64,000 nucleotides of DNA from a virus: positions 94,929 through 158,928 of the IMG/VR virus record IMGVR_UViG_3300020202_000062, one strand, 5' to 3'. A program made the translations under genes and the position numbers. Positions 21,108-42,694 of the stretch are shown piece by piece; position 1 is the stretch's first letter; each line of letters begins with the position of its first letter. The notes under the pieces were generated by a model that was given only the letters and a program-made list of their open reading frames with translations, searched no databases and was not told the origin of the DNA.

Positions 21108-24100
21108 CTAGTCCTTATAGGCGTCAGCGCCACGCTCTGTGTCGTTGGTTAGTAGATCCTTGAAGTATATAGTAGCGAGACCTGACATAACCATAGCCCA
21201 GTTTGCGGTGTAAGGACGGGAATCTTCCATATAGGAATCCCATGCGATAAGCGGATGCTTCTCCGCCAAGCCTCGGAGAACCGTATCCCTATCTCCTGGT
21301 GGAGTTCCTTGCGGAACGTTGTGGAATACTACCGCTAGCAAACGAGCACTGTCTGTGCTGTCGTACTTATTATACCTGTTGTAGCGAAGGGCGACGGTAG
21401 GCTCATAACCTGCTGCTTTTGGATCATCGATAAGAATCTTCTTAAGATAGGCTGTAGCCAAAACCGATCGGGCACTGTTTCTGTTTGATGAAATTCCCTC
21501 GTCCTGAGGATCCTGGAACGGCATGTTCTCGCCGGTAATTGCATCATAATCAAGTTCGTAAACATCCCTATCGTGGATCTGCAACTCGGCGGTGTTGATA
21601 CCAGTGAGACGAACCGTAACTCTACCGTGCTCGGTTTCAACGTCGATGGTGTCACCGTCCTCGATATCTACGACAGTTCCGATTTCGACTTCTGGCTTGT
21701 TTAGCGCAATCTCGTCCGGAGTTCTACCTGCCATTTCCATGATCTTCACCTGAGTCTGAGCATTCCACCAACTTACCTCACGAACTAGGCGTGTGATGTC
21801 GATTGGCTTCCAACCAAGAGCAGATAGAAGATCATCTGACCGAATAAAACTATTCCCATGTTGGTCTTGTGTGTTAACTCGCACGCCCAAAATACCAGGC
21901 AGTAGGTTGATGCTGTGATGCCTTCCTACCGCTACACCCTGTGCGTATGACAGCCCTGCATCCATAGGCTTACCGTCTTTGTTTAGGTACTGGATGTAGC
22001 ACCCATGCTGATCTAGGAGATTATCCCTAACCCACTTCCAAGCATCCCAAGCTAGGTCACCAGCAGCAAGGCCGCCGACACCGCCGATGACAGCACCCGC
22101 AGGACCGCCACCAAGGAGGAACCCTGCGCCTGCACCCACCACGGGAGCGAGGCCAGTCGCAGCCATAGGAAGTAGAGCCTCAGCCAATCCGCCACCCTGG
22201 TTACCAAGTGCGCCTACATTGACCAATCCCATCTGCGAAGCAGAAGCCAAATCCTTAACTAAAGCACTTGAACCCTGAGTGTATTGGAGGTGGCCGTACA
22301 TCTGAGTCCTCATAACTTCAGCCAGATTTCTAGATGTGATCTTCTCAGACACAAAGTAACTCTCTGCATCTTGTGTCTTGTCGATTATCTGACGTACATC
22401 GTCTCGCATGTTCTTAACTGCCCACCAACTCCAGATCCAAGAGATCATTGACCACCTTGCGGGATCGTTGATCGTTACAATAGCGTTAGGGGTAACAGAT
22501 GTGATGAACCCTTGATCGGGAGTAAAGTGATGTACAACTTGCTCAACTTCGAACATACCGTAGCAACGCTCGTAAATATCAGCAATGTAAATTAGATCGT
22601 GAGGTCTGATATCTGGGTTTCCAAGAAGGATTATTTCTCCACTGTAGATATCCTTCAAATTTTCCTTAAGATGCCATAAGGCAACGCGCTTCGACAACAT
22701 TTCGTCAGCAGATCCTGTAGTTACCTTAGCAATGCTTCGTGCTGTTTCAATTGGATGAAGCAGTGGATGCAAGAACCCAAGGATACCGCTACCTTTAGCG
22801 TTATCCCAGAATAGGCCAGTCTCTACCGCAATTTCAGTCTGCCTTTCTGGCGGCGCACCCTTGTCCATATGGACTGTTACTGGATACTTACCGTCAGAGG
22901 TAGCCGTAACTACTGTTGCAACATTGCTATTCTCTTCAATTTGATTAGAGATGATGTGCTGGAATGAGTTGATGTAGTGCATACGCTGGAATGGCTCACG
23001 CACCTCAACTACAGGTTCTCCATATTCGCGAGTGAATGGGTTGTCTGCTAGGCGCAGGATTGAGCCCTCTTCTCCAGCCTTGAAGTAGATAGAATCGTTG
23101 AATACCTTGTTTAGTAGGTTGGCCTGCTTCTGCATTGAACCCACCATGTTTAATCCTTGCCCCATGGTCATCATTGACATACGGAACATAGATACTAAAC
23201 CAGACAATCCTGCGCTTACTGCGGTGAGCAACTTCCCAATAGTTGCGTCAAGTGCCTGATCAATATCCTCAAGGGCAGCACCAAGTAGAGAATCGGCTTC
23301 GTCACCTTCGGAAGCGTTCTGTTCCATCCATGCTTTTAGTTCTTGCTCGAAAGCAGATATTGGCATAGGTTCGACTGTGGAATGCTTGATCCTCATGTAC
23401 TCTTTCCACAGCTTTTCAACGCGGTTAAACTTCCAACCTTCGCCCCCAAAGATAGCGTCAGGAGTGAAATCGAACAATTCTCCGGTATCGCCCAAGGCTT
23501 CAATCGAGTTGTCGGTGAAGAGTTGACCCTTATCAACCTTCCTACTGACGACTACCACTACCCAAGCACGACGCCATGGATCCTGCCATAGCCACTTCTT
23601 GAATTCCTCAATATACTCACCATAAAGATCTTCGTTGTCCTCATGGTTTTCTAGTGTTATCTTCTCCCACTCTCCTTCTACCGAATCATAATCTTGGAAT
23701 TCTTTTCTGAACTGATCCCAGATCTCTTCTGCTTCGTCTACAGTTCTCTTGCCTATGAGTCTAGCCGTAGAGTTTTCGCGCTCCGCAAATTCCTCATCAT
23801 ACAGAAGCCTAGCAAGGTAACCGATGTTCTGGGTTTTGTCATCCTGGTAAAGTCCAGATCCCCTATTTATATATACGGGCACGTTCTCTTCTAGGCCACC
23901 CTGCTCAAACTCATACAGGCCAGCGCTATCGGCACGTTCTTCATCGAACCAGTCGAAGGTTCCGTCTGAATATGTGTTTCCATCAGACGATTCTTCTAGT
24001 TCGATTTCTTCGTCTGAGGAATCTGCAATCGCTTCCTGGCCACCTTCGCGATCTGCGTTTCTCATTCCTGGTGATCTACCAGATGAATCAATGCCAGTGA

Positions 24101-27100
24101 TACCTGAAGAAGCAAGGCTTGTTACTGGACCCAATTTAGAGTTGTCGTCAACGAAACCAACCCAAATGTTTGTGTCGCCGTTCTTGATCCCTAACACTTC
24201 AGCAACATCGGGAGATACACCAATGTGGTGACCTGTACTTGGGCTCGGTCCTTTATCTCCAGGAGTACAGACACATGCTCTGCCATTGTTAGCATTGAAT
24301 ACAAGGATTCTTGATCCCTTCAATTCATCACGCTTCACATGTGCACTATCCCAGTACATATTCATGTACCAACGCTCTGACTCTGGATCTAGAACGCCAA
24401 AGAATCCAGTTCGACCCGGCCAATCCGGATTGTCACCTTCCTTAATCGTGCCGCCCTCTGAGTATTCATTATTCCCGTGAACACCACCCACACCACCTTG
24501 TTGACCCCTTGCCGAGCCATCGGAAGACCGGTCCATATAGAATGGATGACGCTTCTCTGGAGGTAGTGTCGATGATTGCTGATGTTGCTTCATGTCTTCC
24601 TCTAGGCTGCTGCTAGTTGGAAGATGCATCTCTTCTACAATGCTTCCTGTTCTATGGGGCAGCAAGACTTTTTTGGTAGATTCATCTCTATAAAGTGGAA
24701 GAGTCTTAAATTCTCTCAGCGCCCAATCCGGAACATCTACTGATCCATTTGGCTGAACCTGCTGCATTGAGAACGGATGCGATTTCTCTAGATTCTCATA
24801 AAACTGCATTTCATTCTTAAGATCCGCTAGAGGGTTAGCGAGGCCTGCCGCATTTTGCAGCATTCGCTCCAACTCTTCATTAGAATCCTCGACCTTTAGG
24901 GTTGAACTCTTAGGAATACCTGTAGTCAAAGGGATTACACCCGAGGTATACAGCCAATGTGGCTTGCCATAGAATACTGTTGAGCGATCTTCAAATGGTC
25001 GAACTGCAACTATGTAGTTTGGTAGAAGTGCTGCACAGAGTCTAAATAAGTCCCATACGGACTTCATGTATGTCTGAGCACGGAATGATACTTCATCAAA
25101 TCCATTGACATCATCGTCACTATTCGTCAAACCAAGAGCCTTCATGAATGGGTGGTTCTCGCGGCGTGATCGTACAGCCTCGAAGATTCGAGGATCAGTT
25201 GCGGTATTAATGTCCCCTCCGTCTAGGGCGACAGCAACTTCATTCGGATCAAGACCAGAATTACGAAGTGCTCGCGCATCATCATCCTCACCAGAACTTT
25301 GGACATCTGCTATAGTGGCATTCGCTTGTGCTTGTGCGCTTAATCCGTCAAAAACTCTAGTCTCTTGAGGTGTCTTTGAGTTGCGACCCTCATGCGTAGC
25401 GGCCATGGTTAAAGCGCCGTCCATTAGGTCGCCACCCAAGTACTGAGCAACGCCCAATCCGTTTCCTGGATAGATATTTCTCTTGAATAGTTCGTAGTCT
25501 CTGCGATTTACAAAGTTAGCCCACATATTCTGCATCAGATCGATAGCAGGTGAGCGGATCCCCTCTCCAGCGAGAGATGAGAAAAGTGTCCCGGTTCCAT
25601 CCCCACCGGATGCAAAGAAGCTTGTTAGGCCACCAAAGGCTTCACCTAGGCTACTTACGGGATCATTGCCTTCTAAATCTCCTGTAAACTGTTGTAGGTT
25701 ATTCTTTACAATCTCGTATCTGTCAGCGTGTCGCTTTTCTTCTCCATCTGACATTGGCTCGTAAAGGATGTGCCCAAAGTGACGGATTCCGAATCGGCTC
25801 TCTGAGAAGATCTGACCTTTGAACGCATGAGCGATCTGCTCTTTAACTCCACTTGCTCCCATAGACAGAAGTCGCACCATAAGATCTCTTGGCTCAGATA
25901 GCCACATAGATCCCATGAAGCCTTCGTTCATATCTCCGGAATGCCCCTTCTTATCAGTAGTGTTGATAATAGGGCTTAGTTCAATAGCGTCTGACTGGCA
26001 AGTGATCGTGATGATGTCGCCAGTTTCAACAGTTGTTACGACGCCGTTAAATACGGTTGGTAGTGCGTTTGGATTGGCACTATATCCCATACGTAAGTGA
26101 ACCCTAACACCAGGCTTAAGTCTGATATTTTCAATCTCAACAATATGAGAATCTACTGTACCGCTCATTAGGTTGCGGCCTGCGTCACGGATGGTGTCGA
26201 TGACGGCTAGGGCCATATCTGGCTCTTCCTCATCGGTGAGACGCGTGTCAGTCTTCCCGTTGATTACGGCCTTGTATTCCGAAGATAGTTTGGAGTATAG
26301 GTTAGAGACTCTAAGGATCAAAGTATCGCCTAAGATGTCTTCGGACTGAACTATCGAAAAGTCAATAACGGACTGTAGCCCGTAGAAATTGTCGAACAAC
26401 TTAACGCCAGTGAAGTATCCACCCTCATCAATTAGCCACAACATATAAGTTGGGAAGGCTCGAACCATACGACCAGACAAGTCACGGTACTGTGCATCCT
26501 GCATCATTAGATGGAACTGATGGTTGGGATTAGCTGTACCCTTGTCTTCGTAAGGGTGACCATAAGATGCAAATGGTGCTGTATCGGCGGTTGGTGTAGT
26601 TGGTTCAACTTGAACTCTTGATGCAATGTCATCATCTACATTGATTCCACGAGCAGCCCATTCGGTCTGTCCAGTGTCGATATCTTCTTTTCCGAAAGCC
26701 CAGCCGTAGTCATCCAACTCAATAATGGAGTTGGACTTCATATCCTTATCATATACACCAAGGTTCAACTTGTACTTGTGGCTGTAACCTTCTGCTGTGC
26801 GATCCTGGATGGTCGCTACTTCTCCCAGACCTAGATCGAGTTCCCTAGTTAAATGGCTGACTGACGGAGTGTAGTCCTCAATTGGTGTGGTCTTGTTTGA
26901 ATCCTCGACACCAAGGTAGTTAGCCAAAGCCTCATATCCGGTTGTTGCTTCTTTTCTTTGCAGCGATCCCTGAACGATATCGTCATCAATGGTCTGAAAA
27001 GCGTGGAAGTAATAGTCTGGGTCCAGGTGCCCTACAATCTTTCCATCTTCGTCTTTCACAGACAGAGGGAAATCTGGGTATGCATTAAAGGCACCCCAGA

Positions 27101-29486
27101 GTTGCTTGATTCTTAGGAATGGGTTTCTCTTGCCGAAAGCCTCAACCAGTTCCTTCTGTTGCTCGCTGGACAACTGCTCACGCATCTGCTGCTTTACATC
27201 AAAATCTGTAAATGAAAGCCTTACACTGTAGACGCGTGGGAATCCTGGGATTGTATCCACTTCGAATGCTAGAGGTAGAACATACTTGATTCCTGCAAGT
27301 GCAGTTAGAACATTCTTAACGCCCATGAATCCGAGCACTCCGTGTGCGTGCTCTAGTCGGGCTAGGTTATTGACGTGGTTGTACGCTTGCTTAAGACGTA
27401 TAAGTTCTTCCTCACCAAAGACAGTCATGGAGACATCGATACGTGAGTCGCGGCCACCAATATGCTGATGAACTGGTTCTTCCTGCATCTGTAACTGGAG
27501 CCTTGCAATATTGTTAGCAATAGTTACGCTCACGCCATTGACGATTACCTTAGACCAGTCAATGGGGAGACGAGCCATAGGAACTTCCCATTCACGGATC
27601 GTTAGGTGGGAGTCTTTGAACATTGCATCTTCAAGGTACGCCTGGAAGTAAGGTGTAGTCTTGTAATTATTGAAGATGTAGTCAAACCAATATAGAGCGG
27701 CTTCTAGGTTTAGCTTGTCAATAGCCGCATCTGTCAGTGAACTTCCAGTTCCTAGGACCGAAAGATTCCTATAAAAGCCCTGCCACTCGGCCATCTTCTC
27801 TAGTGACATTGCAGAAGGGTTGCCATAAAGTGAATTATCACGAAGGTAATTGTGTAGAACACTCCTAGTACTTGATAACTCAGAAGCGGAGATCCTCTGA
27901 CTAAATGAAGAGAGGGTATCAAATCCTAATTCCTCCCATACGTAACCAGGGGCGGTGTCTACGTCAATATTCATAGCACCTAAGAATGACTCCCACCAAG
28001 ACTTCTCACGAACGGCATCAAAGTCTTCGTTCTCACCTGGTTGCCTGAAGTTGGCTAAGTCAGGGCCGAAAACCTGAAGAGGAGTCTTGATTGGGTAGTA
28101 GATGTTGAAGTTTTTACCATCTAGCCATTCTTGCTTCTTGTTAAAACTTGTTGGGATCTCATGTTCATAAGCAGGCACGGTCTGCATTGCGTCTTCTGGA
28201 TTGTTTGGGTCGATCTTCTCAACCATACTATCTTGACGCTCACTGAATATGCCGTACTCTCCATAGTATGAGACTTCCTTCTCAATAAGGAATCCCTGAG
28301 TAGCAGAGGCGGCCAATTGCTTTGCTGCACGACCCATATACTGACGGTACTTACCCCAGTGAATAGCGTTATTGAAGTCGTGAATCATAGGCAAATATGC
28401 CTTATGGTTAAACTTCAGTAGATTTAGGTTTACGGCGACACAGAATGGGAAGTCTTCAACCGTTGAGATTGTCATGCTCTGAAGCACGACTCCGGTAATG
28501 TCCCATGTCTGGTTGAGGTACTGGTTCTTTATAGGTAGGAATGGAGCATACTTAAACTGAGCAACAAGGCCACGCAGTGACGACAGGAACCTATCTACCT
28601 CTTCCTCATTGCCATCCGCGTCGAAATTGATGTCAATCTTCTCTCCATCTGAACTATCTAAGAATGAGGTTGCATCCATGTCCCCACCCCAGATTGATTC
28701 TTGGTTTGGGAAGTACAAGGTCATAGTGATCATGGTCTCGCTGTGGCCACTATTGAACTTGGGCGCAATCTGCTGCCTTAGAGCACCGCCCGTTAAGCTT
28801 CCTGCTCGTCCCTGCTGGCTAACATTGATGTTTAGCGGCGGGACCACAAACCTAGACGCACCGATCCTGCACTCCCATGGGAAAACTGGTAGTGGTGCTA
28901 CGTTCTCTCGGATATGCTCATTGAAGATTTCGCCCAGGCGAACCTGAGTATCCAAATATCCAAATGCCATCTCAAACCCAGAGGCGCTGTCACTACCACG
29001 ACTGAACGCATCTGCGATTTGGTCTAAGATATATTCGCTACGGTTCTCTCCCTCCGGGACTTCCAGGTGTGTCTGGTTGTACCATATGGTATACGCGGTC
29101 CAGAGTTCTTCGGTTAGGGGGAACCACTTGTATAGCTTTTTCTTGAAGGCGTGTGCGTTCGAGTCAGAGTAATTGCCGAGCCTATTCAACCAAACCAAGT
29201 GTTGTTGGGTGGGATTCCCGGCTCGCACTGCCGAAAGAACCGTTTCTAGGTTCTTGATAAGATCCTCAAGTCCATGATCTACAATGACGCGAATGAGTGC
29301 TTCTTTTTCTGCTCTCTGGGCGTCGTTATCGAAGTCCACGCCCTGGAAGAGAAGTTCGTCTGAATAGGCTTGTTCGACGGCTTCGTCAAACTCCTCTGGC
29401 GTGGTAGCCGCCCAGAGGTCCTGTTCTTCTTCGTAACTTAAGCCATCTCCGTCACCGTATAGGCTCATTCCGCCAGATTCAGACAT
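21108..29486 (-). CDS. Giant baseplate hub protein with RlpA-like DPBB, glycine zipper and C-terminal thermonuclease (SNase-like) domain
   Basis: 2792 aa; hub motifs LKPGVRVHLRMGY..VFNG and GEIILLGNPDIRP..FEVEQVVHHF; NGRACV..DKGP..VSPDVAEVLG (RlpA-like); GAGAGFLLGGGPAGAVIGGVGG; EDGDT..VRLTGINTAE..RLLA..GLA (SNase-like). Confidence 0.75.
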   Translation of the reverse strand: MSESGGMSLYGDGDGLSYEEEQDLWAATTPEEFDEAVEQAYSDELLFQGVDFDNDAQRAEKEALIRVIVDHGLEDLIKNLETVLSAVRAGNPTQQHLVWLNRLGNYSDSNAHAFKKKLYKWFPLTEELWTAYTIWYNQTHLEVPEGENRSEYILDQIADAFSRGSDSASGFEMAFGYLDTQVRLGEIFNEHIRENVAPLPVFPWECRIGASRFVVPPLNINVSQQGRAGSLTGGALRQQIAPKFNSGHSETMITMTLYFPNQESIWGGDMDATSFLDSSDGEKIDINFDADGNEEEVDRFLSSLRGLVAQFKYAPFLPIKNQYLNQTWDITGVVLQSMTISTVEDFPFCVAVNLNLLKFNHKAYLPMIHDFNNAIHWGKYRQYMGRAAKQLAASATQGFLIEKEVSYYGEYGIFSERQDSMVEKIDPNNPEDAMQTVPAYEHEIPTSFNKKQEWLDGKNFNIYYPIKTPLQVFGPDLANFRQPGENEDFDAVREKSWWESFLGAMNIDVDTAPGYVWEELGFDTLSSFSQRISASELSSTRSVLHNYLRDNSLYGNPSAMSLEKMAEWQGFYRNLSVLGTGSSLTDAAIDKLNLEAALYWFDYIFNNYKTTPYFQAYLEDAMFKDSHLTIREWEVPMARLPIDWSKVIVNGVSVTIANNIARLQLQMQEEPVHQHIGGRDSRIDVSMTVFGEEELIRLKQAYNHVNNLARLEHAHGVLGFMGVKNVLTALAGIKYVLPLAFEVDTIPGFPRVYSVRLSFTDFDVKQQMREQLSSEQQKELVEAFGKRNPFLRIKQLWGAFNAYPDFPLSVKDEDGKIVGHLDPDYYFHAFQTIDDDIVQGSLQRKEATTGYEALANYLGVEDSNKTTPIEDYTPSVSHLTRELDLGLGEVATIQDRTAEGYSHKYKLNLGVYDKDMKSNSIIELDDYGWAFGKEDIDTGQTEWAARGINVDDDIASRVQVEPTTPTADTAPFASYGHPYEDKGTANPNHQFHLMMQDAQYRDLSGRMVRAFPTYMLWLIDEGGYFTGVKLFDNFYGLQSVIDFSIVQSEDILGDTLILRVSNLYSKLSSEYKAVINGKTDTRLTDEEEPDMALAVIDTIRDAGRNLMSGTVDSHIVEIENIRLKPGVRVHLRMGYSANPNALPTVFNGVVTTVETGDIITITCQSDAIELSPIINTTDKKGHSGDMNEGFMGSMWLSEPRDLMVRLLSMGASGVKEQIAHAFKGQIFSESRFGIRHFGHILYEPMSDGEEKRHADRYEIVKNNLQQFTGDLEGNDPVSSLGEAFGGLTSFFASGGDGTGTLFSSLAGEGIRSPAIDLMQNMWANFVNRRDYELFKRNIYPGNGLGVAQYLGGDLMDGALTMAATHEGRNSKTPQETRVFDGLSAQAQANATIADVQSSGEDDDARALRNSGLDPNEVAVALDGGDINTATDPRIFEAVRSRRENHPFMKALGLTNSDDDVNGFDEVSFRAQTYMKSVWDLFRLCAALLPNYIVAVRPFEDRSTVFYGKPHWLYTSGVIPLTTGIPKSSTLKVEDSNEELERMLQNAAGLANPLADLKNEMQFYENLEKSHPFSMQQVQPNGSVDVPDWALREFKTLPLYRDESTKKVLLPHRTGSIVEEMHLPTSSSLEEDMKQHQQSSTLPPEKRHPFYMDRSSDGSARGQQGGVGGVHGNNEYSEGGTIKEGDNPDWPGRTGFFGVLDPESERWYMNMYWDSAHVKRDELKGSRILVFNANNGRACVCTPGDKGPSPSTGHHIGVSPDVAEVLGIKNGDTNIWVGFVDDNSKLGPVTSLASSGITGIDSSGRSPGMRNADREGGQEAIADSSDEEIELEESSDGNTYSDGTFDWFDEERADSAGLYEFEQGGLEENVPVYINRGSGLYQDDKTQNIGYLARLLYDEEFAERENSTARLIGKRTVDEAEEIWDQFRKEFQDYDSVEGEWEKITLENHEDNEDLYGEYIEEFKKWLWQDPWRRAWVVVVVSRKVDKGQLFTDNSIEALGDTGELFDFTPDAIFGGEGWKFNRVEKLWKEYMRIKHSTVEPMPISAFEQELKAWMEQNASEGDEADSLLGAALEDIDQALDATIGKLLTAVSAGLSGLVSMFRMSMMTMGQGLNMVGSMQKQANLLNKVFNDSIYFKAGEEGSILRLADNPFTREYGEPVVEVREPFQRMHYINSFQHIISNQIEENSNVATVVTATSDGKYPVTVHMDKGAPPERQTEIAVETGLFWDNAKGSGILGFLHPLLHPIETARSIAKVTTGSADEMLSKRVALWHLKENLKDIYSGEIILLGNPDIRPHDLIYIADIYERCYGMFEVEQVVHHFTPDQGFITSVTPNAIVTINDPARWSMISWIWSWWAVKNMRDDVRQIIDKTQDAESYFVSEKITSRNLAEVMRTQMYGHLQYTQGSSALVKDLASASQMGLVNVGALGNQGGGLAEALLPMAATGLAPVVGAGAGFLLGGGPAGAVIGGVGGLAAGDLAWDAWKWVRDNLLDQHGCYIQYLNKDGKPMDAGLSYAQGVAVGRHHSINLLPGILGVRVNTQDQHGNSFIRSDDLLSALGWKPIDITRLVREVSWWNAQTQVKIMEMAGRTPDEIALNKPEVEIGTVVDIEDGDTIDVETEHGRVTVRLTGINTAELQIHDRDVYELDYDAITGENMPFQDPQDEGISSNRNSARSVLATAYLKKILIDDPKAAGYEPTVALRYNRYNKYDSTDSARLLAVVFHNVPQGTPPGDRDTVLRGLAEKHPLIAWDSYMEDSRPYTANWAMVMSGLATIYFKDLLTNDTERGADAYKD

Positions 29487-29500
29487 TTACATCTCCACAC

Positions 29501-29908
29501 TTAAAACAATCTATTGAGGCGCATTGCCTTCTTTAGTCTCATCATAGAACTATTAGGAGTGCTACGATAAGTGTAATCAAAAACATTCTTACTTATTGTA
29601 CCTACTCTGTTGACCGGATTGCTAGTCTGAACCCCCAACTTAGTAGGTATTCTCATGCCGCGAGCCTTTTGCGCTCCTTTGGCCAGATAGCCTGAGTCGT
29701 TCATTTGGATGGGTGCTGACGACCCATGCATGTAACCTTCCCAAGAACCGCCTCGCTTACTAGGTGCACTAGTAACCGAAGATCTCCTATTCTGACCTAA
29801 GGAAACTTTGACGGCTTCTCTTCTTTCTGCGACGTTATCATTTGCGACATTTCGCTTACCAACAGCCGCTTTGTACTTTGAGTGCTGGTCGTTTATTGAT
29901 CCGCTCAT
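29501..29908 (-). CDS. Small basic hypothetical protein
   Basis: 135 aa, Lys/Arg/Ser-rich; ATGA overlap with the upstream gene. Confidence 0.65.
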   Translation of the reverse strand: MSGSINDQHSKYKAAVGKRNVANDNVAERREAVKVSLGQNRRSSVTSAPSKRGGSWEGYMHGSSAPIQMNDSGYLAKGAQKARGMRIPTKLGVQTSNPVNRVGTISKNVFDYTYRSTPNSSMMRLKKAMRLNRLF

Positions 29909-32900
29909 GGCCTATAGTCCTGATCGATGATACTGAAGATGTCTTCAAATCCTGGAGACGCATTATACATTGAGCCTGTTGCTGGTGCACCAGTCAGCAT
30001 CTCTGCTTGAAGTAGTAAAGTATCTGAGTGAACATTACCGCCACTTCCCCTTACCCTATATGTCACACCCTGTCCACTAGAAGAACCACGAGAGTATCCC
30101 ATGTCTGGCATTGGGTCGGTGTACATTCCTTCGTAGAAAGATCCACCAGGAAGGAAGTCTGGCCCAGAAGCATCCTCTGGGGTGACATCCTTTTGAGACT
30201 GGAACAAGAAACTGAAGCCAATAAGACCAGCCGCTATCATTGCGCCGCGATTTACCGCTTTCACATCCCACACTTTCCAAAGTTCATCCTTGCTGATCCT
30301 TGTAAGGTCTTTCATCTTTCTTGCAGCACCAGTTGCCATGGACTTAACAGCAGCCTTCTTCGCACCAGGGACGTATCCTTCTGGTAAGAAATCTCCAACA
30401 CTAATCTCTTTAGCGTGCATTCTACGAAGGTGCTTTAGCTGATCTCTTGTGAGTCCTGGGAAATGAGTCTCGTGAATCTTCTTTAAGTTGCCCCCTGTCA
30501 ACATTCTGGCTGTAGCGACGTTTGTTAGGTCGGCCATATTTGCAGCCTTCCCTGTGCGCCCCATTAGAACGTTCCAATCTCTACCCTCATTGTGAGTAAT
30601 CTGCATAAGCGCACCAATAACGCGGAATGCCTTGTTTCCTGCCTTGCCGTCTTCAAAGTTCTCAGCCATAGCAATAGCCGCAGCGCGATGTGCCGATCGG
30701 AATGGGTCTTGTTTATGAGCCATCAATTCCAACAAGTCGCCAGGGGTATCTGTTATCTGATCTCCCATTGCTTCGTCAAATGCGCTCAGAACCCTTTGGG
30801 CCGATTCTATTTCCTCTGGTGTATAAACACCCTCAATAGCCTCTTTGATCCAAGGTGTCTTTGCTACTTCTTTCCTTGCGATTTCTTTCGCTGCCTCGAT
30901 TTGGAGTTGTCGTGCGTGCACTGCTCTAGACCATATTGCTCTTTCATCTTCTCTCCCCAGCAAATACGCACTAAGGTCATGGTCTTCGGGGCTCAACCCC
31001 AACCTTGCAGCAGCATCAGCCAACCCGGCTGCAACGTTTGCCTTGTTCTTTAGCCTTTGCTCTACTAGCAATTGATCTAAGCCTATGTCGATACCTTTAG
31101 CCCTAGCCACAGCCAACAATTCGCCTAGTGCACGCTCGATCCTTGGCATTTCTGTGTTCTCAAGTTTTGCTACTGCTCTTGGATCTGGGTTAATGACAGC
31201 GTCAATGATTGACTCAGTGTCTAGTTTCAATAAGGGGTTTGCGTACTTACCCTTCTTCGGTATGGTTGCTAGTTGATCTCCGAACTGATTGTTAAGGTAA
31301 TAGACCAACATATGGACGTTCTCAAGCATACCGAGAATAGGCTTCGCTTGAGCCATTCTCTCCGCTACTACCATTTGCTGGCGTCCCAACCTAATACCGC
31401 TAACATCCATGATTTTCTTTTTCAACTCAAATGGAGCAATTGTAAGAGCGCGATCTAGTTGACTTAACTTGTCCTCACGTCTAAGACTCATGAACTCATT
31501 TATGTCATCTATTCTTCGTATGTGCTCCTTTATAAGGTTGCGCTTCTCTATGCGCGCCTTTTGCCATGCCCTTTTAGCAGAGGCATCAATGAGATGTATT
31601 CCATCCGCTGAATGAAATAGCATGGTTTCATGTAAGTTTTGCAACTGTGCGGCAACTGTGTCCATGCCCTTCAGTTTGAATACGTGCTTAAGCGTGTCAA
31701 TATCATCTTCGGCAATATTGAACACTCCAAACTCACCTGCTGCTGTAGGTGAACGGAACGATAGCAGTTTAAGATTGTATCCGCCTTTACCTTTGTTGTC
31801 CCAGACTAATCTACCAGTTAAAGCGTCGTCTAAGTCCCATCCACCGAAGGAGTGGTAAAACTCATTTGGAATATTCTGCTCTAGGATCCATCCAATATTC
31901 GGTCGGAAAGTAACTTGATTTTTGGCGAGCCGCAAAGGCTTATCCAGTAATCCAGACTGGTTGACAGTATGCTGGTCGATAATGTATCCGCGCATAGCAT
32001 CAGGCACTTCGGCTCTGAATATAGGATTACCGTATCTATCCTTCGACTCCATCCATGCTACGTACGAATCCAGAATGGCTTTCTTCAGCACTGGGCTGGT
32101 TCTCGCGTCCAGTCCCTGATCTACATAATCGATTACAGACCTAGCATATGATTGCTTTTCTAGAAACTCATCTGTAGACATATTGCTTGGCTTTTCGCGC
32201 TCTAGGATTTCACGTAAAGACTCAATAAAGGCTTCAACCTTACCGTGCGTTCCACTGCCATTAAGATCTTCAATGAATCTCTGGAACTGCGTATCATTGT
32301 ACTCAAGGATGTTATTTACATCGTACAAATTACGATGGGCCATCATTGACTGGATGTCTGAGAATACGATTCCCTTACTAGACTTACGTGCATCTAAAGA
32401 GATCCATCCGTTCATGTGGTCAGCAAAGCTTAACTGCTTTGTGATTCCGCTTTCGTGAACAACGATATCGGAACCAAAAAACTTACCACCCTTAGCAAAG
32501 GCTGCCTTTGATCCAATAAGGACGTTTCCCTTGATTTGACCCTTACCAACATTAAGACCCATTGCACGCATGTTAAATACGCCGCCCTCGTTGATGGCTT
32601 TGTGTAATTGTTTGGCGGCAGCGTGCATCTTCTTTACTTCGCGTCTACCCTTGACGGCAGCAGCAGTTCTTTTTCCGGCTAACTTAATACCCTCTTCATC
32701 GGCTCTCTTCTTTAGGTTCTGAGCCATGGCACGAGCAACCTTAGGGTTGATAATAGCGATACCGTCCTTAGACCTTAGAGCGGCTTCTTCTGTCATGCCG
32801 GGGAACATACTGCTAAGATCATTCCATGCAGCAGTGTTTACCTTAAGTTTCCTATCAAGAGAAGTGGCGTAGCCACGCTCACTGAAAAGTGCCTTAAGTC

Positions 32901-33429
32901 GCTTAGAAGACCTGGCAAAGTCTTTGGTGTTATCAACATCCATTTCTAGACCTAGGGCCTTCATGGCACTTTGGGTGTCTAGTTCCTTACCGCCCTTAAA
33001 TACGCGTACGACAGTATTCACATCTTGATCAGTAACGTGAATACCATAAACCTTGTTGCCCTTAGTGAACCTACTCTTATACTCTCCGATGTTGGTTCTG
33101 TCGAGATGATAAGCCTCTCTAACAATATCCAACTTACCACGTATAGCAGCCTGTTCTAGGAAATCGTAATAGAGCGGTCCATTCTGAGGTCGGACTCCAC
33201 GAAGATGATTACCGCGCGTCCTGCTACCTAGGAATTCTTCTCGCTTAGTTAGGCCGGTGCTGTGTATGTACTTCAAGAACTCTGAAGGATCCGAGAACTC
33301 CTGATGACCTAGACCTGTTGTGCCCAACTGAACCAATTGGACTTTGCCATTCTTTACATCGATCCTATGTGTGATCCTATTTGTTCTATCGTCCTCACTA
33401 AAGAGTCTCTTTATTTGATCACCATTCAT
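29905..33429 (-). CDS. Putative single-subunit two-barrel RNA polymerase-like protein (YonO/QDE-1-like), possibly virion-packaged
   Basis: Ordered motifs DGIAII (aa ~222), FNMR..IKG (~288-300), DIVVHES..K (~321), FRAEVP..R (~471), GGWDLDD..LVWD (~529), RSP..GE (~559); C-terminal hydrophobic segment. The ORF is solid; the function is inferred. Confidence 0.55.
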   Translation of the reverse strand: MNGDQIKRLFSEDDRTNRITHRIDVKNGKVQLVQLGTTGLGHQEFSDPSEFLKYIHSTGLTKREEFLGSRTRGNHLRGVRPQNGPLYYDFLEQAAIRGKLDIVREAYHLDRTNIGEYKSRFTKGNKVYGIHVTDQDVNTVVRVFKGGKELDTQSAMKALGLEMDVDNTKDFARSSKRLKALFSERGYATSLDRKLKVNTAAWNDLSSMFPGMTEEAALRSKDGIAIINPKVARAMAQNLKKRADEEGIKLAGKRTAAAVKGRREVKKMHAAAKQLHKAINEGGVFNMRAMGLNVGKGQIKGNVLIGSKAAFAKGGKFFGSDIVVHESGITKQLSFADHMNGWISLDARKSSKGIVFSDIQSMMAHRNLYDVNNILEYNDTQFQRFIEDLNGSGTHGKVEAFIESLREILEREKPSNMSTDEFLEKQSYARSVIDYVDQGLDARTSPVLKKAILDSYVAWMESKDRYGNPIFRAEVPDAMRGYIIDQHTVNQSGLLDKPLRLAKNQVTFRPNIGWILEQNIPNEFYHSFGGWDLDDALTGRLVWDNKGKGGYNLKLLSFRSPTAAGEFGVFNIAEDDIDTLKHVFKLKGMDTVAAQLQNLHETMLFHSADGIHLIDASAKRAWQKARIEKRNLIKEHIRRIDDINEFMSLRREDKLSQLDRALTIAPFELKKKIMDVSGIRLGRQQMVVAERMAQAKPILGMLENVHMLVYYLNNQFGDQLATIPKKGKYANPLLKLDTESIIDAVINPDPRAVAKLENTEMPRIERALGELLAVARAKGIDIGLDQLLVEQRLKNKANVAAGLADAAARLGLSPEDHDLSAYLLGREDERAIWSRAVHARQLQIEAAKEIARKEVAKTPWIKEAIEGVYTPEEIESAQRVLSAFDEAMGDQITDTPGDLLELMAHKQDPFRSAHRAAAIAMAENFEDGKAGNKAFRVIGALMQITHNEGRDWNVLMGRTGKAANMADLTNVATARMLTGGNLKKIHETHFPGLTRDQLKHLRRMHAKEISVGDFLPEGYVPGAKKAAVKSMATGAARKMKDLTRISKDELWKVWDVKAVNRGAMIAAGLIGFSFLFQSQKDVTPEDASGPDFLPGGSFYEGMYTDPMPDMGYSRGSSSGQGVTYRVRGSGGNVHSDTLLLQAEMLTGAPATGSMYNASPGFEDIFSIIDQDYRP

Positions 33430-36400
33430 TAGACACCCAACTGCATCTCTAGTCTAGTTCCAGGATAAGGAGTTATCACTGGGTACACATCGCCGTTCAC
33501 GCCTTGCTGACGTAATAGTAACCTCAACTGCTGTTCTACATTCCTTCTTGAGGTGTCGTTATCAAAGGTTGGGTATGATGGGTTGACTAGGTTTGCTTCA
33601 CGAACTTCCTGAGGGAAGAATCCCATCTGCGATAGATCTAGACCAAGGCTCTGCCCGATCTTCACTTTGATGTGGTTCATGTTAGTGTTGGGGTGCCACC
33701 CTTCCCAGTTGGCATTAGGGAGTTCGTGCTTTGAGAAGTAGTCCACCAATTCTGGGCGCGCCTCTACTGGGCGGCCCCAAGCAGCCTGATAGATGCGGCG
33801 CTCTAGTCTACCTGCTGTAGATAGGATCTTCTCGTGTTCCTGTTCTGGAGCGAGAACCATCTCACGGAAGTGTTCTCTCTTTCTTCTTGGTAGAGCCTGC
33901 GCTAGTTGTTCTAGGTTAGCGTTGTAAATATCCACACCATACATTGTGCTCTGTGCCATGTTTCGGAACTGTTCGGCCATCTGCATGTCGCCAAGCATAC
34001 GAGCATGCTGCATACCTTTCATGCCTTTAACGTACTGAAGCATGTCAGTGTATTCTTCCAGCGCCAATTCCTGACGACGACGCTTAGGGATAAACCTATC
34101 TCCGGTAATCTTCTCGTACACATCTCCCGCGATGCTGGAGGTTGCACCAATCGCGCCACCAATCACCGTTCCAAGTGCTTTTGCTTCGTGGCTAGCCCCA
34201 AACATTCTACCTACGGTACCTAAGGCCAAGGCAGAAATGATGGGATTACGTTGTGTTGCGTTGTAGGCCATTGGCTTTAAGAAGTCCTCAATTGGATGAG
34301 ACCACTGAGGGAAAGTAGCCCCATAAACGTTTTCGCGCTCCCAATCCTCAAGGGCGCTTTTATGAGGAAGGAACTTAGTATGGAATGGTGTATTCCTGTG
34401 TGCGAACGCCTCTCCAAATCTACGCAGTGCAAACTGAGTATCGGTTAAACCTAACTCTTCTGGGCTGCTGTACTTGTATTTGTATGGGTGGAACTCGTGA
34501 CGACGAGCCTTTGAGTCAACCTGCTGACGAGTCTGCTCGATGAGCATATTCTCTGCGGCATTATTGCCCATACCAACGGCGCGATCTACCATACGGTACG
34601 CGTCGGACCATGGTGCCACATCGCCCAAGATCTTATGCTGATCTACTAGACCGTACTTACCATACATGTCTGAATGAAGAGTGTTAAATCTCTCATACCC
34701 CATACCAGGCAAACGCATCTCACCTTCCTGAACAGCAGTATATGGGTCACCATTCTTGAAGTTCATGAAGTACTCTGAGCCAGGCAGCCACGGATGCATC
34801 ATACCCAGTTGATTTGGGATTGGGTTTATGAACTGTGTGCCTGTTCTCTCCTTTGGAATGAATCGACGTGCGATTTCAGAGAACTCTAAGTTAGCTAAGT
34901 TACCCTCAATAGGTAGAGGAGCATCACCAAGACCGCCCAGGTTAAGATCCCAGAACTGCCTAGATGACCCATATGCTGCTGCTGAACTTGTTAACCTTGG
35001 GATGTTGTCAGATAGATCTGCACTCCCTAGGCCAAGTTGTTCACGTATGGTTCCGAAGGCGAAGCCGTAAATACCGAACAACTCCTGGAACTCATGAGCC
35101 AGTTTCTTTCCTTGGTATCCAAATTCACTCGTAGGCTGAGGGTTAACTCCAGCAATAATACGAGGAGTCATAGACCCTGGGGATACAGGAATTCCATACG
35201 ATCCTGGTCCGAAAGTGTTAGCCCCAGAAGAAAAGCCAACTGGCGAAACTGCACCGCGAGGTGTTACGCCACTTGCAGCAGACAACATTGCGTTGCTAGT
35301 GCTAATGGCTTCATTGACCATGTTTCGGGCAGTATTACGTGGAGATGCTGCTCCCGCATAGCGCAAGTTCATAGCAGACTGAATACCGTCACTTGCTGGA
35401 CCATCCCCACCAGATGACCCCTGTGGGCGCATAGGAGCACCAGGGATATATGCGCCGTATTCTCCGACTGGAAGTATTTGACTTAGGCCGAACTCAACCT
35501 CATCCTTGTGCATCTTTACTTGTGGCTTAAGTACCTTGCCGAAGGTCATGTTCAGAGCCGTGGTAATTGGACCCCATGGCCCAGTAAAGTATTCACCAGT
35601 CACCGGGTATGGGCGCTCGTCATAATGCTTACGCTCAAACCTATATGGATCCAATGGGCGCAATGGGGAGAAATCATAACCAAAGGCTAGGCGCTCTAAT
35701 GGAGATCCAAAGGTCTGATCTGTGTAGAGATGTCCAGCCTGCAATCGCCGGTACCAAGACGGCCTGTAGTATTGGATGCGACCACCCTTAAATGGTGTGT
35801 TTCCTAGAGGCCAGAATCTACCAGACCTAATGGCCACTTCACCATGCTTAAGTTGGTCTAACTTCTCCTCATAACCCATACCCCACGGCATAATACCGGA
35901 AATCGCTGCCTGTGCGTGTACGAGCCCTGTAGCGGCCTTTCCGACGAAGTATGGCGAGTACACCCTATCGCCGTATTCGTCTTTAGGATTCATAAATCCA
36001 CCGATAGTACGATCAGCAGTAAGGGCTACGGTACCACCGGCCACAATCGGGAGGACCCGCTTACCAACCATACCCCTAGCGTAGAAGTCTAGAGGCCCTG
36101 AGTACTTGGTTGGGTCAATACCGATACTGGCAGCAGAGAAGTACCTGTTCATACGTTCGAACATGTGTGATACTGGAACAGATGCGCCAGAGAATGCAGC
36201 AGGATTAGACCAAGTGTTACCACCAACTACGCTAGATACTGCGCCCCATCGCTCTTGCTGCCATGCAGTTCTGAATGTCGGCACGAATACAGTGGAAGTA
36301 TTGCCGAATGGATTATATTCAACTCCCTCAAACTGAGCAGGTGCTGGAGAGAATCTTCTTCTCATAGCGGCAGTAGCAGCATTGCGCCAAGGCGATCCAT

Positions 36401-39400
36401 GCAAACCAAGTTGACCAGACGCCACCGTTCCAAGGAGATCTTTTGATGATTCTCTAGAAATCAGACCAGAAAAAACACCTAAGGCATTTTGTAGTGGGCT
36501 GTTCTCCCTTGAGTAGATGAAGAAACTCTGATTGTCGATTTGCATAGACAACAGGGCTGCGCGAGCTTCTGTGAATTCAGCCTGGCTGATTTGGCCGCGA
36601 CTTCTCATCTGCCCAAGTTTGTTCATTAACTTAGGAACTTGATACTGGAACTCTCTACCGCTTCCCAAGATTCCATCTCGAATACCCAGGTAAGAGTAGA
36701 AACTTTGCCTGAATTCGTCCTGGCGTGTAGAGATTGTTGCGTTACGTGGACCCTTTACTGTTGAATCCCAGTAACTGTCAGACCCCGAATTATCTAAGTG
36801 CCTCCACAGCAGAGATCTCTGAGCGCGCCTAAGTGTTGCGCCCTCGTCTGCTGCTAATGACCTTGCGTGTCTAGCGTCTTCACGCAGAACTAAACGAGCC
36901 GCCTCTTCTAACTGTGTGGCGCTCGTTAGGTCTGATATCTTTGTTTCGCCCATCGGGCCGGGTGTAAAGGTAACTGGCTTAGACCCTGTGAATCGGTAAC
37001 CGAACATACCAGATAGAGAAGAGTCTGCTTCGAATTCGCTCAGAACCTTAGTGCTTAATGCGTTTCTACGGATGGAATATCCCATCATCTGGAATGCCTT
37101 GGCTACATCCGCTTCACCATATAAGACTGACCCAGATTCGTCTACAATTCTGTTGTTTTGTAATCTGTAGATCGAACCCTTTACCTTGATCTGACCCTTA
37201 GACATAAACTCCGCCATTACAGTCGGGTTGTTGATGTCTAACTTGCGGTTAGAGAATCGCTTGATATATCCGAGGATTGAGTTGGACTGGTTGGGATTGA
37301 CATCGAAGGCATTCTTCATCCGACCGTAGCGAGTGTCGTCAGAGTAACGACGCTCACCAAGATCCCCAATGGCAATACGTGTCTGGCGAGCAAAGAGACC
37401 AGAACCGCTAGTGTCGCCCGGTCTGAATAATCCCTTTATCTCGGTAGCACCTATGATTCCAGCCTTGTCTGCACCTACAGCGGTAACCCTACCTCTTGTT
37501 CCCATTCCCTTTGATCGCATCCAGACATAGAAGTCTGCGTTAGCCTGTTGCTGAGACTTCCCAATGAATGGCTGGATGGAGTTACCTGGGCCAATGTGTA
37601 GGATGGCGCGCTCACGTGCTTCTCTAACTGAGTCATACCCAAATAAGGAAAGTGGCTTGGTTTGGATAAGTGGAATCTTGAAATCGTCAGCTACCTTGTC
37701 TAAGAACCTTGTGGCCCTACGACGAAGCATGGTTGTATCTAAGATCTGTCCAGATGAACTTTGATAGACGCCCTTCATCTTGAAGAGACCCATGGTATCC
37801 GAAACTGGGTCGTTTACCGCTAGACGTGAAATGATGTTAGCAATCTGACTTTCAGATCTATCATCGGTAGCAAAGTATCCCCTGTTTAGACCCTCTGAAA
37901 CCGTAAGAGCCTTTAAGCCAAAGATATTCCTTCCACCCTTGGTCCAAGGTGCGGATATATGCTTCTTGCCAACCAAGAATGCTTTAAGTTGTTCTGGGTT
38001 TCCTGGATCAAAACCTCTACGTATTAGATGTGAGTTAACCACACCTTCAGAGATTCTTCTTCCTGTTGGGTCCGCCATAGTTAGGCCAGTGGACTCTGCG
38101 GTCTTTCTGCGTAGATACTGAACCTTAGAAGCGTTCAGATCATAGAAATCTTCGTACGGCAACTTGCCATGACTCAAGAACCCACTAGCGAACTTGGGTG
38201 CGATCTTGCCTTCGACAAGATTCCACTCATGGCGAATCTTGCTGTCTAGAAGTCTCCTGTACTCCTTGTTTCTAAAGAGAACATCTACATTCTTGATCGA
38301 CTTAGAGATACTACCCGCAATAGCATCACGATCGGCGGATTCGAACATGGACAGTCGATTTTTGAATGCCGCCATCCAATCTGATTCATTCTCTGGTAAG
38401 ATATCACCCTTGCCGAATCCTACTCTGGCTGCGAGGTTGAATTCATCATCTGCCGAACCCGGCAAACTAAGCCGCGCCAAAGATGAGAACTTATGAGCAA
38501 CTTTGTCGTTAACTCCATTGTTTCTTAGTTCTCTAGCAAGTAAACGACTGTACTCGTTGGCACTGACAATCTTATGGAATTCGCTCTGACCAAACGCTTT
38601 GTTTCCTGACCTAGCGCCACCATTGCCATAAGACTGAAGCCTGCCTGCCAACTCACTGATTGACGAAGACCCAGAACCCAACATAGCCTGAACGTTTTTC
38701 AACTTGGCTGGGTTAGTCTTATAGATTTCGTTATATCGTGAAGCACCGAGTCTTAGATACTCTGCGTAGTCGTCATACTGCTCACCAATTCTTCGGTAAG
38801 TAGATTTGGCCGCTCTGATTCCTGCACCCAAACCACGGAATGGTCCCGGTAGAGCGTTGTAGATATCAGCCATCTCACCTGGGGCACCGATGGCTGACTT
38901 ATTCCTAAAAAGGAAGTCAAAGCGAGCGCGCTTTCTTGTGGCCTTGTCCATGGCTGCACCAGCCATACGCGCATCAAGTGCCTGAAGTCCGTGGCGAGTC
39001 TTGTGGAGGTAATCGGTTAGATGAAGGCCACGCTGGCGTGCCTCATTAACTGCGCTAGAAAACGCACCTGTGCTTTGAGCAGAGAACTTAACACCCGCGT
39101 TCAGAAGGTCTGTGGCGTCAGTGCCAATCTTTGTAAGCACAGTGCGCAGCATAACTGAGCCTGTCTGAAAGCGCTGCTGGCGGGGCGACAGATTAACCAT
39201 GTCATCGCCGTAGGTCATAGCCTTTCGCCAAAGATGCTTTCCCGATGCTGCACCCATCTCGAATGGGGTGATCATAAAGGCAAGGTTCTTCGTGCTTTGT
39301 GTTACGAAGTCTGTGATTACATCTACTGGGTTGTACCAGTTAATATGCTTCTTATTCTCATCCGAGCCGAAGACATTATCCGTAAGTCCGCGCTGCACGA

Positions 39401-39965: not shown

Positions 39966-40595
39966 TTACCTTAGTTCGCTCATAAGGCGAGCGGCAATTG
40001 GGTCGTCTGCGCGAACCTTTACTTTACCAAACTCATCCTTCATTTCGATAAACTCTGGCTTTTCCTGAGGTCCCTCTTCCTCTTCTCCGTGGAAGTTTAG
40101 ATGTAGACCCGAGTTCTCAACGCCAACTTCTGCTTGTCGAACTTCGATGACCTTCTCGGCTAGGGCTAGTAGCTCGGCCAACTCTTCGTAAGTGAATTCA
40201 TCTAATTCGTGTTTCTTATAAGAAGGCATAGCCGCGATGATGAATGCGTACATCATCTTCCTGAACTCTTTGGCTTCTTCGCGCTTCTTGTATAGAACTT
40301 CTTTAGTAAAGGTATCTCCTGGCAGGAAGCCTGATACTTGCAGGATCTCTCCTGCCAGAGTCGTAATGATACCTGCGGGAATTCTATCCAGATTTAGGTT
40401 GTAAGGATAGACAGTACATAATGATACGATGACATCTTCCGCCTCTGCCGAGTCAGATTCGCTATCGTAGATATTAGCGATTTCATCGAACTCCTTAAAT
40501 GTCAGAGCACGGAAGACATATTCAACGTTCTTAATCTCTACGGAATAGATCCTCTTATATCGCTTCTTTAGTTCAATAAGAGTTTCATCTTCCAT
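39966..40595 (-). CDS. Tail assembly chaperone 2
   Basis: LKKRY..IY..YVFRALTFKEF..EDVIV..GIITTLAGEILQVSGF; paralogue of the adjacent gene; precedes the tape measure. Confidence 0.7.
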   Translation of the reverse strand: MEDETLIELKKRYKRIYSVEIKNVEYVFRALTFKEFDEIANIYDSESDSAEAEDVIVSLCTVYPYNLNLDRIPAGIITTLAGEILQVSGFLPGDTFTKEVLYKKREEAKEFRKMMYAFIIAAMPSYKKHELDEFTYEELAELLALAEKVIEVRQAEVGVENSGLHLNFHGEEEEGPQEKPEFIEMKDEFGKVKVRADDPIAARLMSELR

Positions 40596-41107
40596 TAGAG
40601 TTGACGCACCTCTAGTGCCACGAAGCCGGATGCATCCATTACTTCCTGTGCGATGATGGTGGCCACGCCAGCCATCTCCTGAACCAACTGCTCACCGTTT
40701 AGGCTCGGGAACAGTAGACACTTTGAGGCGATATACTCTTCTTGGTACATCTGAGCCTCTGGTGCGGTTAGTTGACCTGAACTAGTAAGACGCTCCATGT
40801 CCTTGATCATTGCCCTGTACTCAAGGCGTGACATAGTGCGCCAAACATAGTGCTTGTCCATAGTTAAAGACGTAACGTATACGTCACCGAACTTTTCTTT
40901 CCATGCGAGGATGCTACCAACGGTAGGGCCAGAGGGCCACAGCTCCTCACTTGGGTCTAGGTCTTCTAGGGCTACTGGCTCCCCAAAGTCTTCGAAGTCG
41001 TCACCAGTCTCGCCTTCATCTTCGACATCGACTGGATCTGGAGTTACGATAAGATCCTCTACTTCTGGTGTCTCGTCGTCGTCTCCTGGGATAATTACAT
41101 TTGGCAT
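40595..41107 (-). CDS. Tail assembly chaperone 1
   Basis: WKEKFGDVY..YVWRTMSRLEY..EEYI..GVATIIAQEVMDASGF. Confidence 0.7.
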   Translation of the reverse strand: MPNVIIPGDDDETPEVEDLIVTPDPVDVEDEGETGDDFEDFGEPVALEDLDPSEELWPSGPTVGSILAWKEKFGDVYVTSLTMDKHYVWRTMSRLEYRAMIKDMERLTSSGQLTAPEAQMYQEEYIASKCLLFPSLNGEQLVQEMAGVATIIAQEVMDASGFVALEVRQL

Positions 41108-41109
41108 TG

Positions 41110-42581: not shown

Positions 42582-42614
42582 GCTTGTCTCCACATATCAC
42601 ATAGGGTGCTGATC

Positions 42615-42623
42615 TATTAGTAA
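42615..42623 (-). promoter_or_regulatory. Putative late promoter element TTACTAATA
   Basis: Downstream of the UUCG hairpin, about 41 nt upstream of ATG 42581. Confidence 0.5.
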
Positions 42624-42644
42624 GACTCTTTCCAGAAATAGCAA

Positions 42645-42668: not shown

Positions 42669-42694
42669 CTACTGTAACCCTGTATTGGTTAGAG

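Follow-up and report, generated by a model that had tools for sequence, protein, structure and literature searches.

Single-chain RNA polymerases are encoded by several phages. In Thermus phage P23-45, gp96 is a virion RNA polymerase fused to the tape measure and gp64 is its paralogue (Chaban et al. 2024, PMC10770324; PDB 8h2m, 8h2n, 8f72, 8f5m), and gp96 was shown to carry out early transcription from the entering DNA (PMC10770324). The metal loop of gp96 reads DFDGD at residues 779-783 (PMC10770324), while that of gp64 reads DYDGD at residues 326-330. Bacillus phage 0305phi8-36 gp99 and SPbeta YonO are QDE-1-like DNA-dependent RNA polymerases of phages (PMC2147016, PMC5467207, PMC7824862). 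In the tail module of 0305phi8-36, the gene lying between gp145 and gp147 is gp146, which is assigned as the tape measure; the annotation of both gp145 and gp146 states that mass spectrometry detected them in virions, and Hardies et al. reported that only the last 60 residues of gp146 are conserved among its own relatives.

We analysed a window of 64,000 nucleotides (positions 94,929 to 158,928 of IMG/VR virus record IMGVR_UViG_3300020202_000062) in which the ORF list and its translation reveal a gene of 1174 codons for a two-barrel polymerase-like protein, P0001 (29905..33429, minus strand). This ORF and every motif that a sequence-only reading had quoted from it are present in the translation: KDGIAIINP (aa 221-229), FNMR (aa 285-288), QIKGNVL (aa 298-304), DIVVHESGITK (aa 321-331), SDIQ (aa 357-360), FRAEVPDAMRGYI (aa 471-483), LAKNQV (aa 500-505), RP (aa 510-511), GGWDLDD (aa 529-535), WD (aa 543-544) and FRSPTAAGE (aa 558-566). 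The C-terminal hydrophobic helix noticed in the same reading was recovered by a Kyte-Doolittle scan at aa 1062-1078 (30196..30246, minus strand), within a model helix spanning aa 1057-1079. It is followed by a conserved tail domain (29908..30192, minus strand) recognised in the alignment consensus by the motifs PED..GP.LLPGGS.YE and G.TY.V. No part of the family is conserved more widely than this C-terminal tail, aa 1030-1165 being the best stretch in most of 185 hits.

Sequence searches with P0001 returned no match in Pfam, PHROGs, PDB sequences or a PDB profile search, and PF05183 (RdRP, QDE-1 family) gave no match at E <= 1 in either the protein scan or the genome scan. Comparison of the family profile with gp96 (aa 1-1200), gp99, gp145 and gp146 by hhalign gave no significant match; the single, statistically insignificant match to gp99 pairs GGfDlDD with GGaDtDGD. 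At 50% identity the family falls into 185 clusters, all of them uncultured. Querying 50,697 phage records by tblastn with P0001, P0002 and P0086 yielded nothing, so that no cultured relative carries P0001. The metal-loop motif is absent from the slot proteins of cultured relatives. The same protein as P0001 is carried by a complete contig of 236 kb (ENA ERZ27257313, k141_2097778).

The relationship to polymerases emerges from predicted structure. An AlphaFold model of aa 170-600, computed without templates and from an alignment containing only P0001's own unannotated family, reached a pLDDT of 88.8 and a pTM of 0.86 (pLDDT 72 for the full-length protein). Two double-psi barrels (DPBBs) are predicted in one chain, the beta-like barrel preceding the beta-prime-like one, which is the arrangement that marks the single-chain QDE-1/YonO clade of the two-barrel superfamily. 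The first, beta-like region (DPBB-B; ~aa 185-350, 32380..32877, minus strand) was recognised from model strands and conservation, its boundaries following the strands; it holds D222-G223, FNxR (R288) and K300-G301 in the same order as in gp99, and the model shows a long helical hairpin (aa 229-281) interrupting it. The second, beta-prime-like region (DPBB-A; ~aa 470-575, 31705..32022, minus strand) is predicted from model strands at 478-485, 505-509, 513-516, 536-544, 552-558 and 567-572 and from weak Foldseek matches to the aa 170-600 model, among which are bacterial beta-prime chains.

When the full-length model was searched with Foldseek, all 14 listed matches at E <= 0.001 were QDE-1 and RDR2 chains (best E 6e-6), and VIA aligned 400-637 of its residues. 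The only folds matched over long stretches were those of QDE-1, RDR2 and P23-45 gp64/gp96. These matches between modelled and known folds, obtained by the AlphaFold and Foldseek route that the sequence-only reading had suggested, support its proposal of a divergent single-chain two-barrel polymerase. Structural alignment to QDE-1 and RDR2 delimits a predicted polymerase body at ~aa 70-1000 (30430..33222, minus strand). The DxDD loop falls in register with the loops of gp96 and gp64, and the structural alignments stop 10 residues past the last Asp (376 versus 366 in the model, 793 versus 783 in gp96, 340 versus 330 in gp64). Matches in the BFVD viral library include proteins named RNA-dependent RNA polymerase as well as crAss-like phage proteins, and a fold search of the ESM Atlas returned one unnamed cluster (TM 0.48).

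The polymerase gene lies within a tail module homologous to that of 0305phi8-36. Before the module, a tail sheath gene (43376-44668), two tube-like genes and three small genes (39966..44668, minus strand; PHROG matches) follow the same order as ORF139-144 of 0305phi8-36. The gene immediately upstream (33429..39962, minus strand) encodes 2177 aa and had been taken for the tape measure; we reject this assignment, as BLASTP shows the product to be homologous to the virion protein gp145 (E 1e-49 and 2e-40). Nothing informative came from searching the Atlas for features of this 2177-aa protein. The overlap of its stop codon with the polymerase start, TAATG, is real. Downstream, a basic ORF of 135 aa (29501..29908, minus strand) overlaps the polymerase stop (ATGA) and keeps its position in homologous loci, where alignment identifies counterparts of 127, 151 and 145 aa (L002, L004 and L005, respectively). 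Next comes a 2792-aa homologue of the baseplate hub gp147 with a cell-wall-degrading part (21108..29486, minus strand; tblastn E 2e-31 to ORF147, phrog_20474 4.7e-124). These three divergent loci keep both the order of the four genes and the 1-nt overlap. Because its flanking genes are homologous to gp145 and gp147, the polymerase gene is, judging from these sequence comparisons, in the tape-measure slot of a 0305phi8-36-like tail module and, by slot equivalence, is encoded in or as the tape-measure gene of that module. Both the slot and the C-terminal helix and tail fit a tape measure; ~aa 70-1000, for their part, align to globular polymerases, and since such alignments cover nearly the entire chain as far as ~residue 1000, little is left to serve as a length ruler.

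Since the gene sits where related phages keep their tape measure, it is probable that the phage delivers a transcription enzyme of its own by injection. We propose, with a probability of roughly 70%, that P0001 belongs to the QDE-1/YonO clade as a highly divergent single-chain polymerase, occupies the tape-measure slot and is likely delivered with the virion for early transcription; delivery itself we infer from synteny. An active polymerase could instead remain unpackaged, being made late with the tail genes and acting in the infected cell, for instance on late genes. That almost the whole chain to ~residue 1000 is polymerase would suit such an enzyme, as would the precedent of gp99, which is encoded outside the structural module of 0305phi8-36. 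However, in all loci examined the gene is fixed, with overlapping codons, between the gp145-like and hub genes, at the very place where it replaces the 0305phi8-36 tape measure, and neither the hydrophobic helix nor the most conserved C-terminal domain has an obvious use in a cytoplasmic enzyme. We thus regard an unpackaged polymerase as unlikely.

The enzyme might also travel in the virion and do another job there, as an RNA-dependent polymerase, in primer or DNA synthesis (cf. PolD) or as a genome-pulling motor. Substrate choice could be altered by the DxDD loop and by the shifted position of the RxP hairpin; in cellular enzymes, the RxP arginine helps select ribonucleotides. QDE-1 and RDR2, which match best in structure, are RNA-dependent and can also use DNA (PMC9508822), and polymerase-driven injection was raised for gp99 by Hardies et al. 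Yet the characterised phage members of the clade, YonO, phi14:2 gp66, gp64 and gp96, are all DNA-dependent RNA polymerases (PMC5467207, PMC10770324), and no alternative polymerase or sigma factor for early transcription is apparent in the 159-kb record, from which 25% of the genome is missing. Searches of this record with PF00623, PF04542 and PF05183 found neither a second polymerase nor a sigma factor, and a gp99 query, the family profile and a regular-expression scan for DxDxD likewise found no second polymerase; no gp99 homologue was detected there. PF00940 gave no hit in a search run without a positive control. Another job is, in our estimation, rather unlikely. As for promoters, counting k-mers exactly and with one mismatch across 70 regions upstream of genes revealed no conserved non-host motif and returned only tRNA T-loop words. 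Sigma-70-like sites show no enrichment in the first 20 kb, where 17 were counted and 23.9 expected.

Two features of the active site count against our proposal, as P0001 shows neither the canonical DxDxD spelling nor RxP in its canonical position. Together with the structural slot, these losses could speak for a catalytically dead descendant serving only as a tail-lumen or ejection protein, an alternative that had been raised from the sequence. To assess the conservation of these features, we aligned 45 homologues at ~20% identity and counted motifs in 125 long family members. K176, R177, K300, G529, D532, D534, D535, R559, P561, E566 and D743 are invariant in the alignment, and because they are so at this level of identity, the motifs of P0001 exceed what chance would produce. 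The metal-loop motif GGWDLDD (31825..31845, minus strand) includes the three invariant aspartates; the loop G[GTSA]xDxDD is kept in 121 of the 125 long members, and DxDxD occurs in none, so that the DLDD spelling remarked on in place of DxDGD proves to be fixed in the family. Among the basic residues of the first barrel, K300 is invariant, G301 is retained in 82% and R288 in 80% of the 45 homologues, and this R..KG pattern corresponds to FQIR..KG of gp99.

The relocation of RxP also extends to the family. The motif RxP..GE (aa 559-566, 31732..31755, minus strand), in which R559, P561 and E566 are invariant, ends the first of two model strands C-terminal to the metal loop, and RxP..E/D is located 18-31 residues after the loop in 118 of the 125 long members. 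Motif order read directly from the sequences is the opposite in gp99, gp64 and gp96, where RxP precedes the loop, which bears out the unusual order described by the sequence-only reading. The family lacks an R/K-x-P strand ~35-40 residues ahead of the loop, the invariant RxP..E sitting after it. R510-P511, which had been matched to QDE-1 as 'RP..GG', was accordingly rejected as a family motif; it is specific to P0001 and not conserved in homologues. The retention of the DxDD loop, RxP..E/D and K300 across the family makes a dead derivative very unlikely, the pattern being typical of a working active site and not of a relic, and on this conservation we reject it. That the polymerase fold is a modelling artefact concealing some other fold is barely credible, given the confidence of the domain model, the independent agreement of two aligners, the matching of four sequence-unrelated polymerase families over 180-290 residues with metal loops in register, and a hand-read motif order that agrees with gp99.

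A virion-delivered polymerase encoded in the tape-measure slot might operate as follows. The active site would combine the Asp triad D532, D534 and D535 of the second barrel with K300, together with R288, of the first, and the Arg-x-Pro hairpin would follow the metal loop instead of coming before it as usual. Encoded in a slot of what appears to be a jumbo myovirus tail module, with gp145 and gp147 homologues on either side, the protein, which ends in the hydrophobic helix and tail domain, would use its C-terminal part to become built into the tail or virion. On infection, the polymerase would exit through the tail and the first phage genes would be transcribed from the entering DNA, as with gp96 of P23-45. 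Only tentatively do we suggest the fuller scenario, in which the catalytic barrel has been rewired by the moved RxP hairpin and DxDD yet remains active, and in which the tape measure was replaced in a jumbo myovirus lineage by an enzyme that travels in the tail lumen, is anchored in the membrane by its C-terminal helix and transcribes the entering genome.

Tail-delivered two-barrel polymerases were first shown in 2024, in one Thermus siphovirus group only. If our proposal is true, the P0001 family extends this delivery strategy to large contractile-tailed phages common in metagenomes. It would also show nature experimenting with an active site more conserved than any other in biology, in which the loop spacing has changed and the substrate-contacting Arg-x-Pro has moved; the relocated RxP and the DxDD loop bear on how double-psi barrel active sites evolve and what change they tolerate. 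As the family is invisible to searches of Pfam, PHROGs and PDB sequences, such phages are currently annotated without any polymerase.

P0001 shares features with several known systems and differs from each of them. The virion-packaged single-chain two-barrel polymerase of a podovirus is likewise encoded among structural genes, but is packaged in the head, carries a DFDxD loop and gives only weak Foldseek matches to P0001 (E 0.065-0.09). QDE-1 of Neurospora and plant RDR2 (PDB 2j7n, 7y7p, 7w84, 7rqs) are eukaryotic RNA-silencing polymerases that belong to PF05183, whereas P0001 falls outside it; their loop reads DxDGD and is preceded by RxP, and their sequential alignments with P0001 end at residue 545, ahead of the relocated hairpin. 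The Thermus phage protein gp96, whose virion presence and activity are proven where those of P0001 are predicted, has no detectable sequence similarity to P0001. It is a true siphovirus tape measure of 5002 aa with DFDGD and RxP before the loop; P0001, by contrast, has 1174 aa, almost no ruler, DxDD and RxP after the loop, and belongs to a contractile-tailed jumbo phage. The assigned tape measure gp146 of 0305phi8-36 occupies the same slot between gp145 and the hub gp147, but is a protein of 2537 aa with neither DxDD nor DxDxD and no polymerase similarity, and resembles P0001 only weakly, at the C-terminal hydrophobic helix and tail (hhalign E 0.026). By motif content (DG, QxR..KG, RIxVP..L..G, FRSP..E and GGxDxD), P0001 is like gp99 and YonO. 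While gp99 is encoded in a non-structural arm and has the canonical motif order with GGADTDGD, it comes from a phage lineage that shares a homologous tail module with the phage of P0001.

The candidate two-barrel polymerase P0001 (1174 residues by ORF list and translation) is encoded on the minus strand at 29905-33429 of the window, which forms the final 64 kb of a 158,928-bp IMG/VR record with a completeness of 75% by CheckV estimate. All the motifs reported by the sequence-only reading were recovered in the translation where it had placed them, and the metal-loop motif GGWDLDD spans residues 529-535 (nt 31825-31845, minus strand). The overlap with the upstream gene was likewise seen, the P0001 start codon sharing bases with the stop of a 2177-aa ORF (TAATG), as was the C-terminal hydrophobic helix, of moderate hydrophobicity, at residues 1062-1078. 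The P0001 stop codon shares bases with the start of a 135-aa ORF (ATGA).

P0001 matched nothing in Pfam, PF05183 included, nor in PHROGs or among PDB sequences, and the 50,697 phage records searched by tblastn contained no match. When 1.84 billion cluster representatives were searched exhaustively with HMMER, 185 relatives emerged at E <= 0.001, for the most part of 1100-1700 aa. A profile built from 45 relatives matched no solved structure by sequence, and our literature search found no paper on this family or on any DxDD two-barrel polymerase. In the 45-sequence alignment, where identity to the query is about 20%, K176, R177, K300, G529, D532, D534, D535, R559, P561, E566 and D743 are invariant, while D222-G223, R288 and K300-G301 are likewise widely conserved among relatives. 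Motif counts were taken over 125 family representatives of at least 900 aa. G[GTSA]xDxDD was found in 121, S[GT]FDLDD in 2 of the 4 others, and DxDxD at the metal-loop place in none, in agreement with the proposal that the loop reads DxDD instead of DxDGD. An RxP..E/D element follows the loop by 18-31 residues in 118/125. The pair R510-P511, previously matched to the "RP..GxDxDGD" of QDE-1 ahead of the loop, was rejected as its counterpart, being peculiar to the P0001 sequence.

AlphaFold2 models were generated from the family alignment and no templates, giving a pLDDT of 72 and a pTM of 0.66 for full-length P0001, and 88.8 and 0.86 for residues 170-600. The structural relatedness suggested to QDE-1 was supported by Foldseek: for the full-length model, the 14 listed PDB matches at E <= 0.001 are QDE-1 and RDR2 chains, with a best E of 6e-6 among the matches listed, followed by weak matches to phi14:2 gp66 and P74 gp62. 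Many bacterial beta-prime chains appear among the matches of the domain model, with weak E-values. In BFVD, the domain model matched two uncharacterised uncultured-phage proteins at E 2e-16 and, lower down, crAss-like phage proteins and proteins named RNA-dependent RNA polymerase. The two former, A0A6J5NTF7 (851 aa) and A0A6J5M9G6 (1141 aa) from uncultured Caudovirales, have a TM of 0.6 by query; A0A6J5NTF7 could be a compact version of the family protein, perhaps one that is not carried in the virion. Prediction and conservation together show the modelled fold of P0001 with a conserved catalytic set, and this conservation suggests that P0001 would have polymerase activity.

The same-strand gene order is tail sheath, two tube-like genes, three small genes, the 2177-aa gene (33429-39962, minus strand), P0001, the 135-aa ORF and a 2792-aa gene. 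The product of the 2792-aa gene shares homology with the baseplate hub (ORF147) of Bacillus phage 0305phi8-36 and with those of related jumbo myoviruses. The 2177-aa protein had been taken for the tape measure; this was rejected, as it is homologous to 0305phi8-36 gp145 (BLASTP 1e-49 and 2e-40). In 0305phi8-36, gp146, the assigned tape measure, sits between gp145 and gp147, and therefore P0001 lies in the tape-measure slot. Two well-conserved blocks of the 2177-aa protein are common with gp145 (residues 1268-1772 and 1848-2176); its N-terminal 1200 residues have no match, and it falls in no Pfam or PHROG family. The four-gene order and the one-base overlap of the first two genes are kept in the loci of the divergent homologues P0003, P0086 and P0019. 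According to their annotation, gp145 and gp146 were both detected by mass spectrometry in virions. From the equivalence of the slot with these proven virion proteins, and from the anchor-like C-terminal part, we infer that P0001 is in the virion. Cultured relatives have slot proteins (gp146, ME3_36 and Moorella phage CDS0027) with neither the DxDD signature nor polymerase similarity, and gp146 weakly resembles the P0001 family in the C-terminal hydrophobic helix and tail only.

The 135-aa ORF (29501-29908, minus strand) encodes a strongly basic product rich in Ser, Asn, Arg and Lys. Three divergent homologous loci have a counterpart in the corresponding position, with common motifs YKAAVGK, GSWEGY, QKAR and LNRL, and 0305phi8-36 and ME3 have none; the product is a possible P0001 partner. 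In the cultured jumbo Acinetobacter phage vB_AbaM_ME3 (locus L013:9747-14558), the slot of P0001 is filled by ME3_36, a hypothetical protein of 1603 aa that lacks the DxDD loop and reads GGDHDQD, a canonical GG-DxDxD spelling, at residues 1214-1220. ME3_36 may be a cryptic polymerase of a different sort, encoded in the tape-measure slot of a phage that can be cultivated.

The 159 kb encodes a DnaB-like helicase besides a DnaE-type polymerase and a class II ribonucleotide reductase (jointly listed at 62972-66307 and 84779-86797 of the whole record, G000:C1, minus strand). The DnaE-type protein is a full DNA polymerase III alpha subunit with PHP, NTPase, finger, HhH and OB domains. These 159 kb, an estimated three quarters of the genome, yielded no homologue of beta, beta-prime or gp99 of 0305phi8-36, no sigma factor and no P0001 paralogue; the search for a T7-type polymerase was run over them without a positive control. 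No promoter word common to upstream regions emerged, and sigma-70-like matches in the first 20 kb of G000:C1 (17) were not above the shuffled expectation (23.9). The tRNA T-loop word GGTTCGAATCC occurs in at least 7 intergenic regions at about 1-52000 of G000:C1, upstream of the window. By analogy with P23-45 gp96 (PMC10770324), P0001 would be ejected and then carry out early transcription.

Structural alignments stop at chain residue 793 in gp96 (DFDGD at 779-783), at 340 in gp64 (DYDGD at 326-330) and at 376 in the P0001 domain model, where D535 is numbered 366. In all three the distance from the last Asp is thus 10 residues, placing the DxDD loop and the next strand on the canonical metal loop. 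Aligning the family profile to gp99 with hhalign gave a single, statistically insignificant match (E 0.19) pairing GGfDlDD with GGaDtDGD. In the P0001 model, only two short strands separate the first barrel-A strand (478-485) from the loop, another two come after it (552-558 and 567-572), and sequential alignments to QDE-1, RDR2 and gp64 end at residue 545, just ahead of the moved hairpin; the modelled strand pattern and the alignment end fit its proposed relocation. Such a rearrangement would amount to a block swap rather than a simple circular permutation. Read directly, gp99 runs RIPV.., L..GEY, FRSP..E, LIMNP and GGADTDGD, gp64 has RRP at 288 and then DYDGD at 326, and gp96 carries FRNP about 35 residues ahead of DFDGD. 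Like these polymerases, P0001 keeps the first two elements and the pre-loop strand in place; unlike them, it carries its FRSP..E hairpin, spelled nearly identically to that of gp99, about 24 residues after the loop instead of before it.
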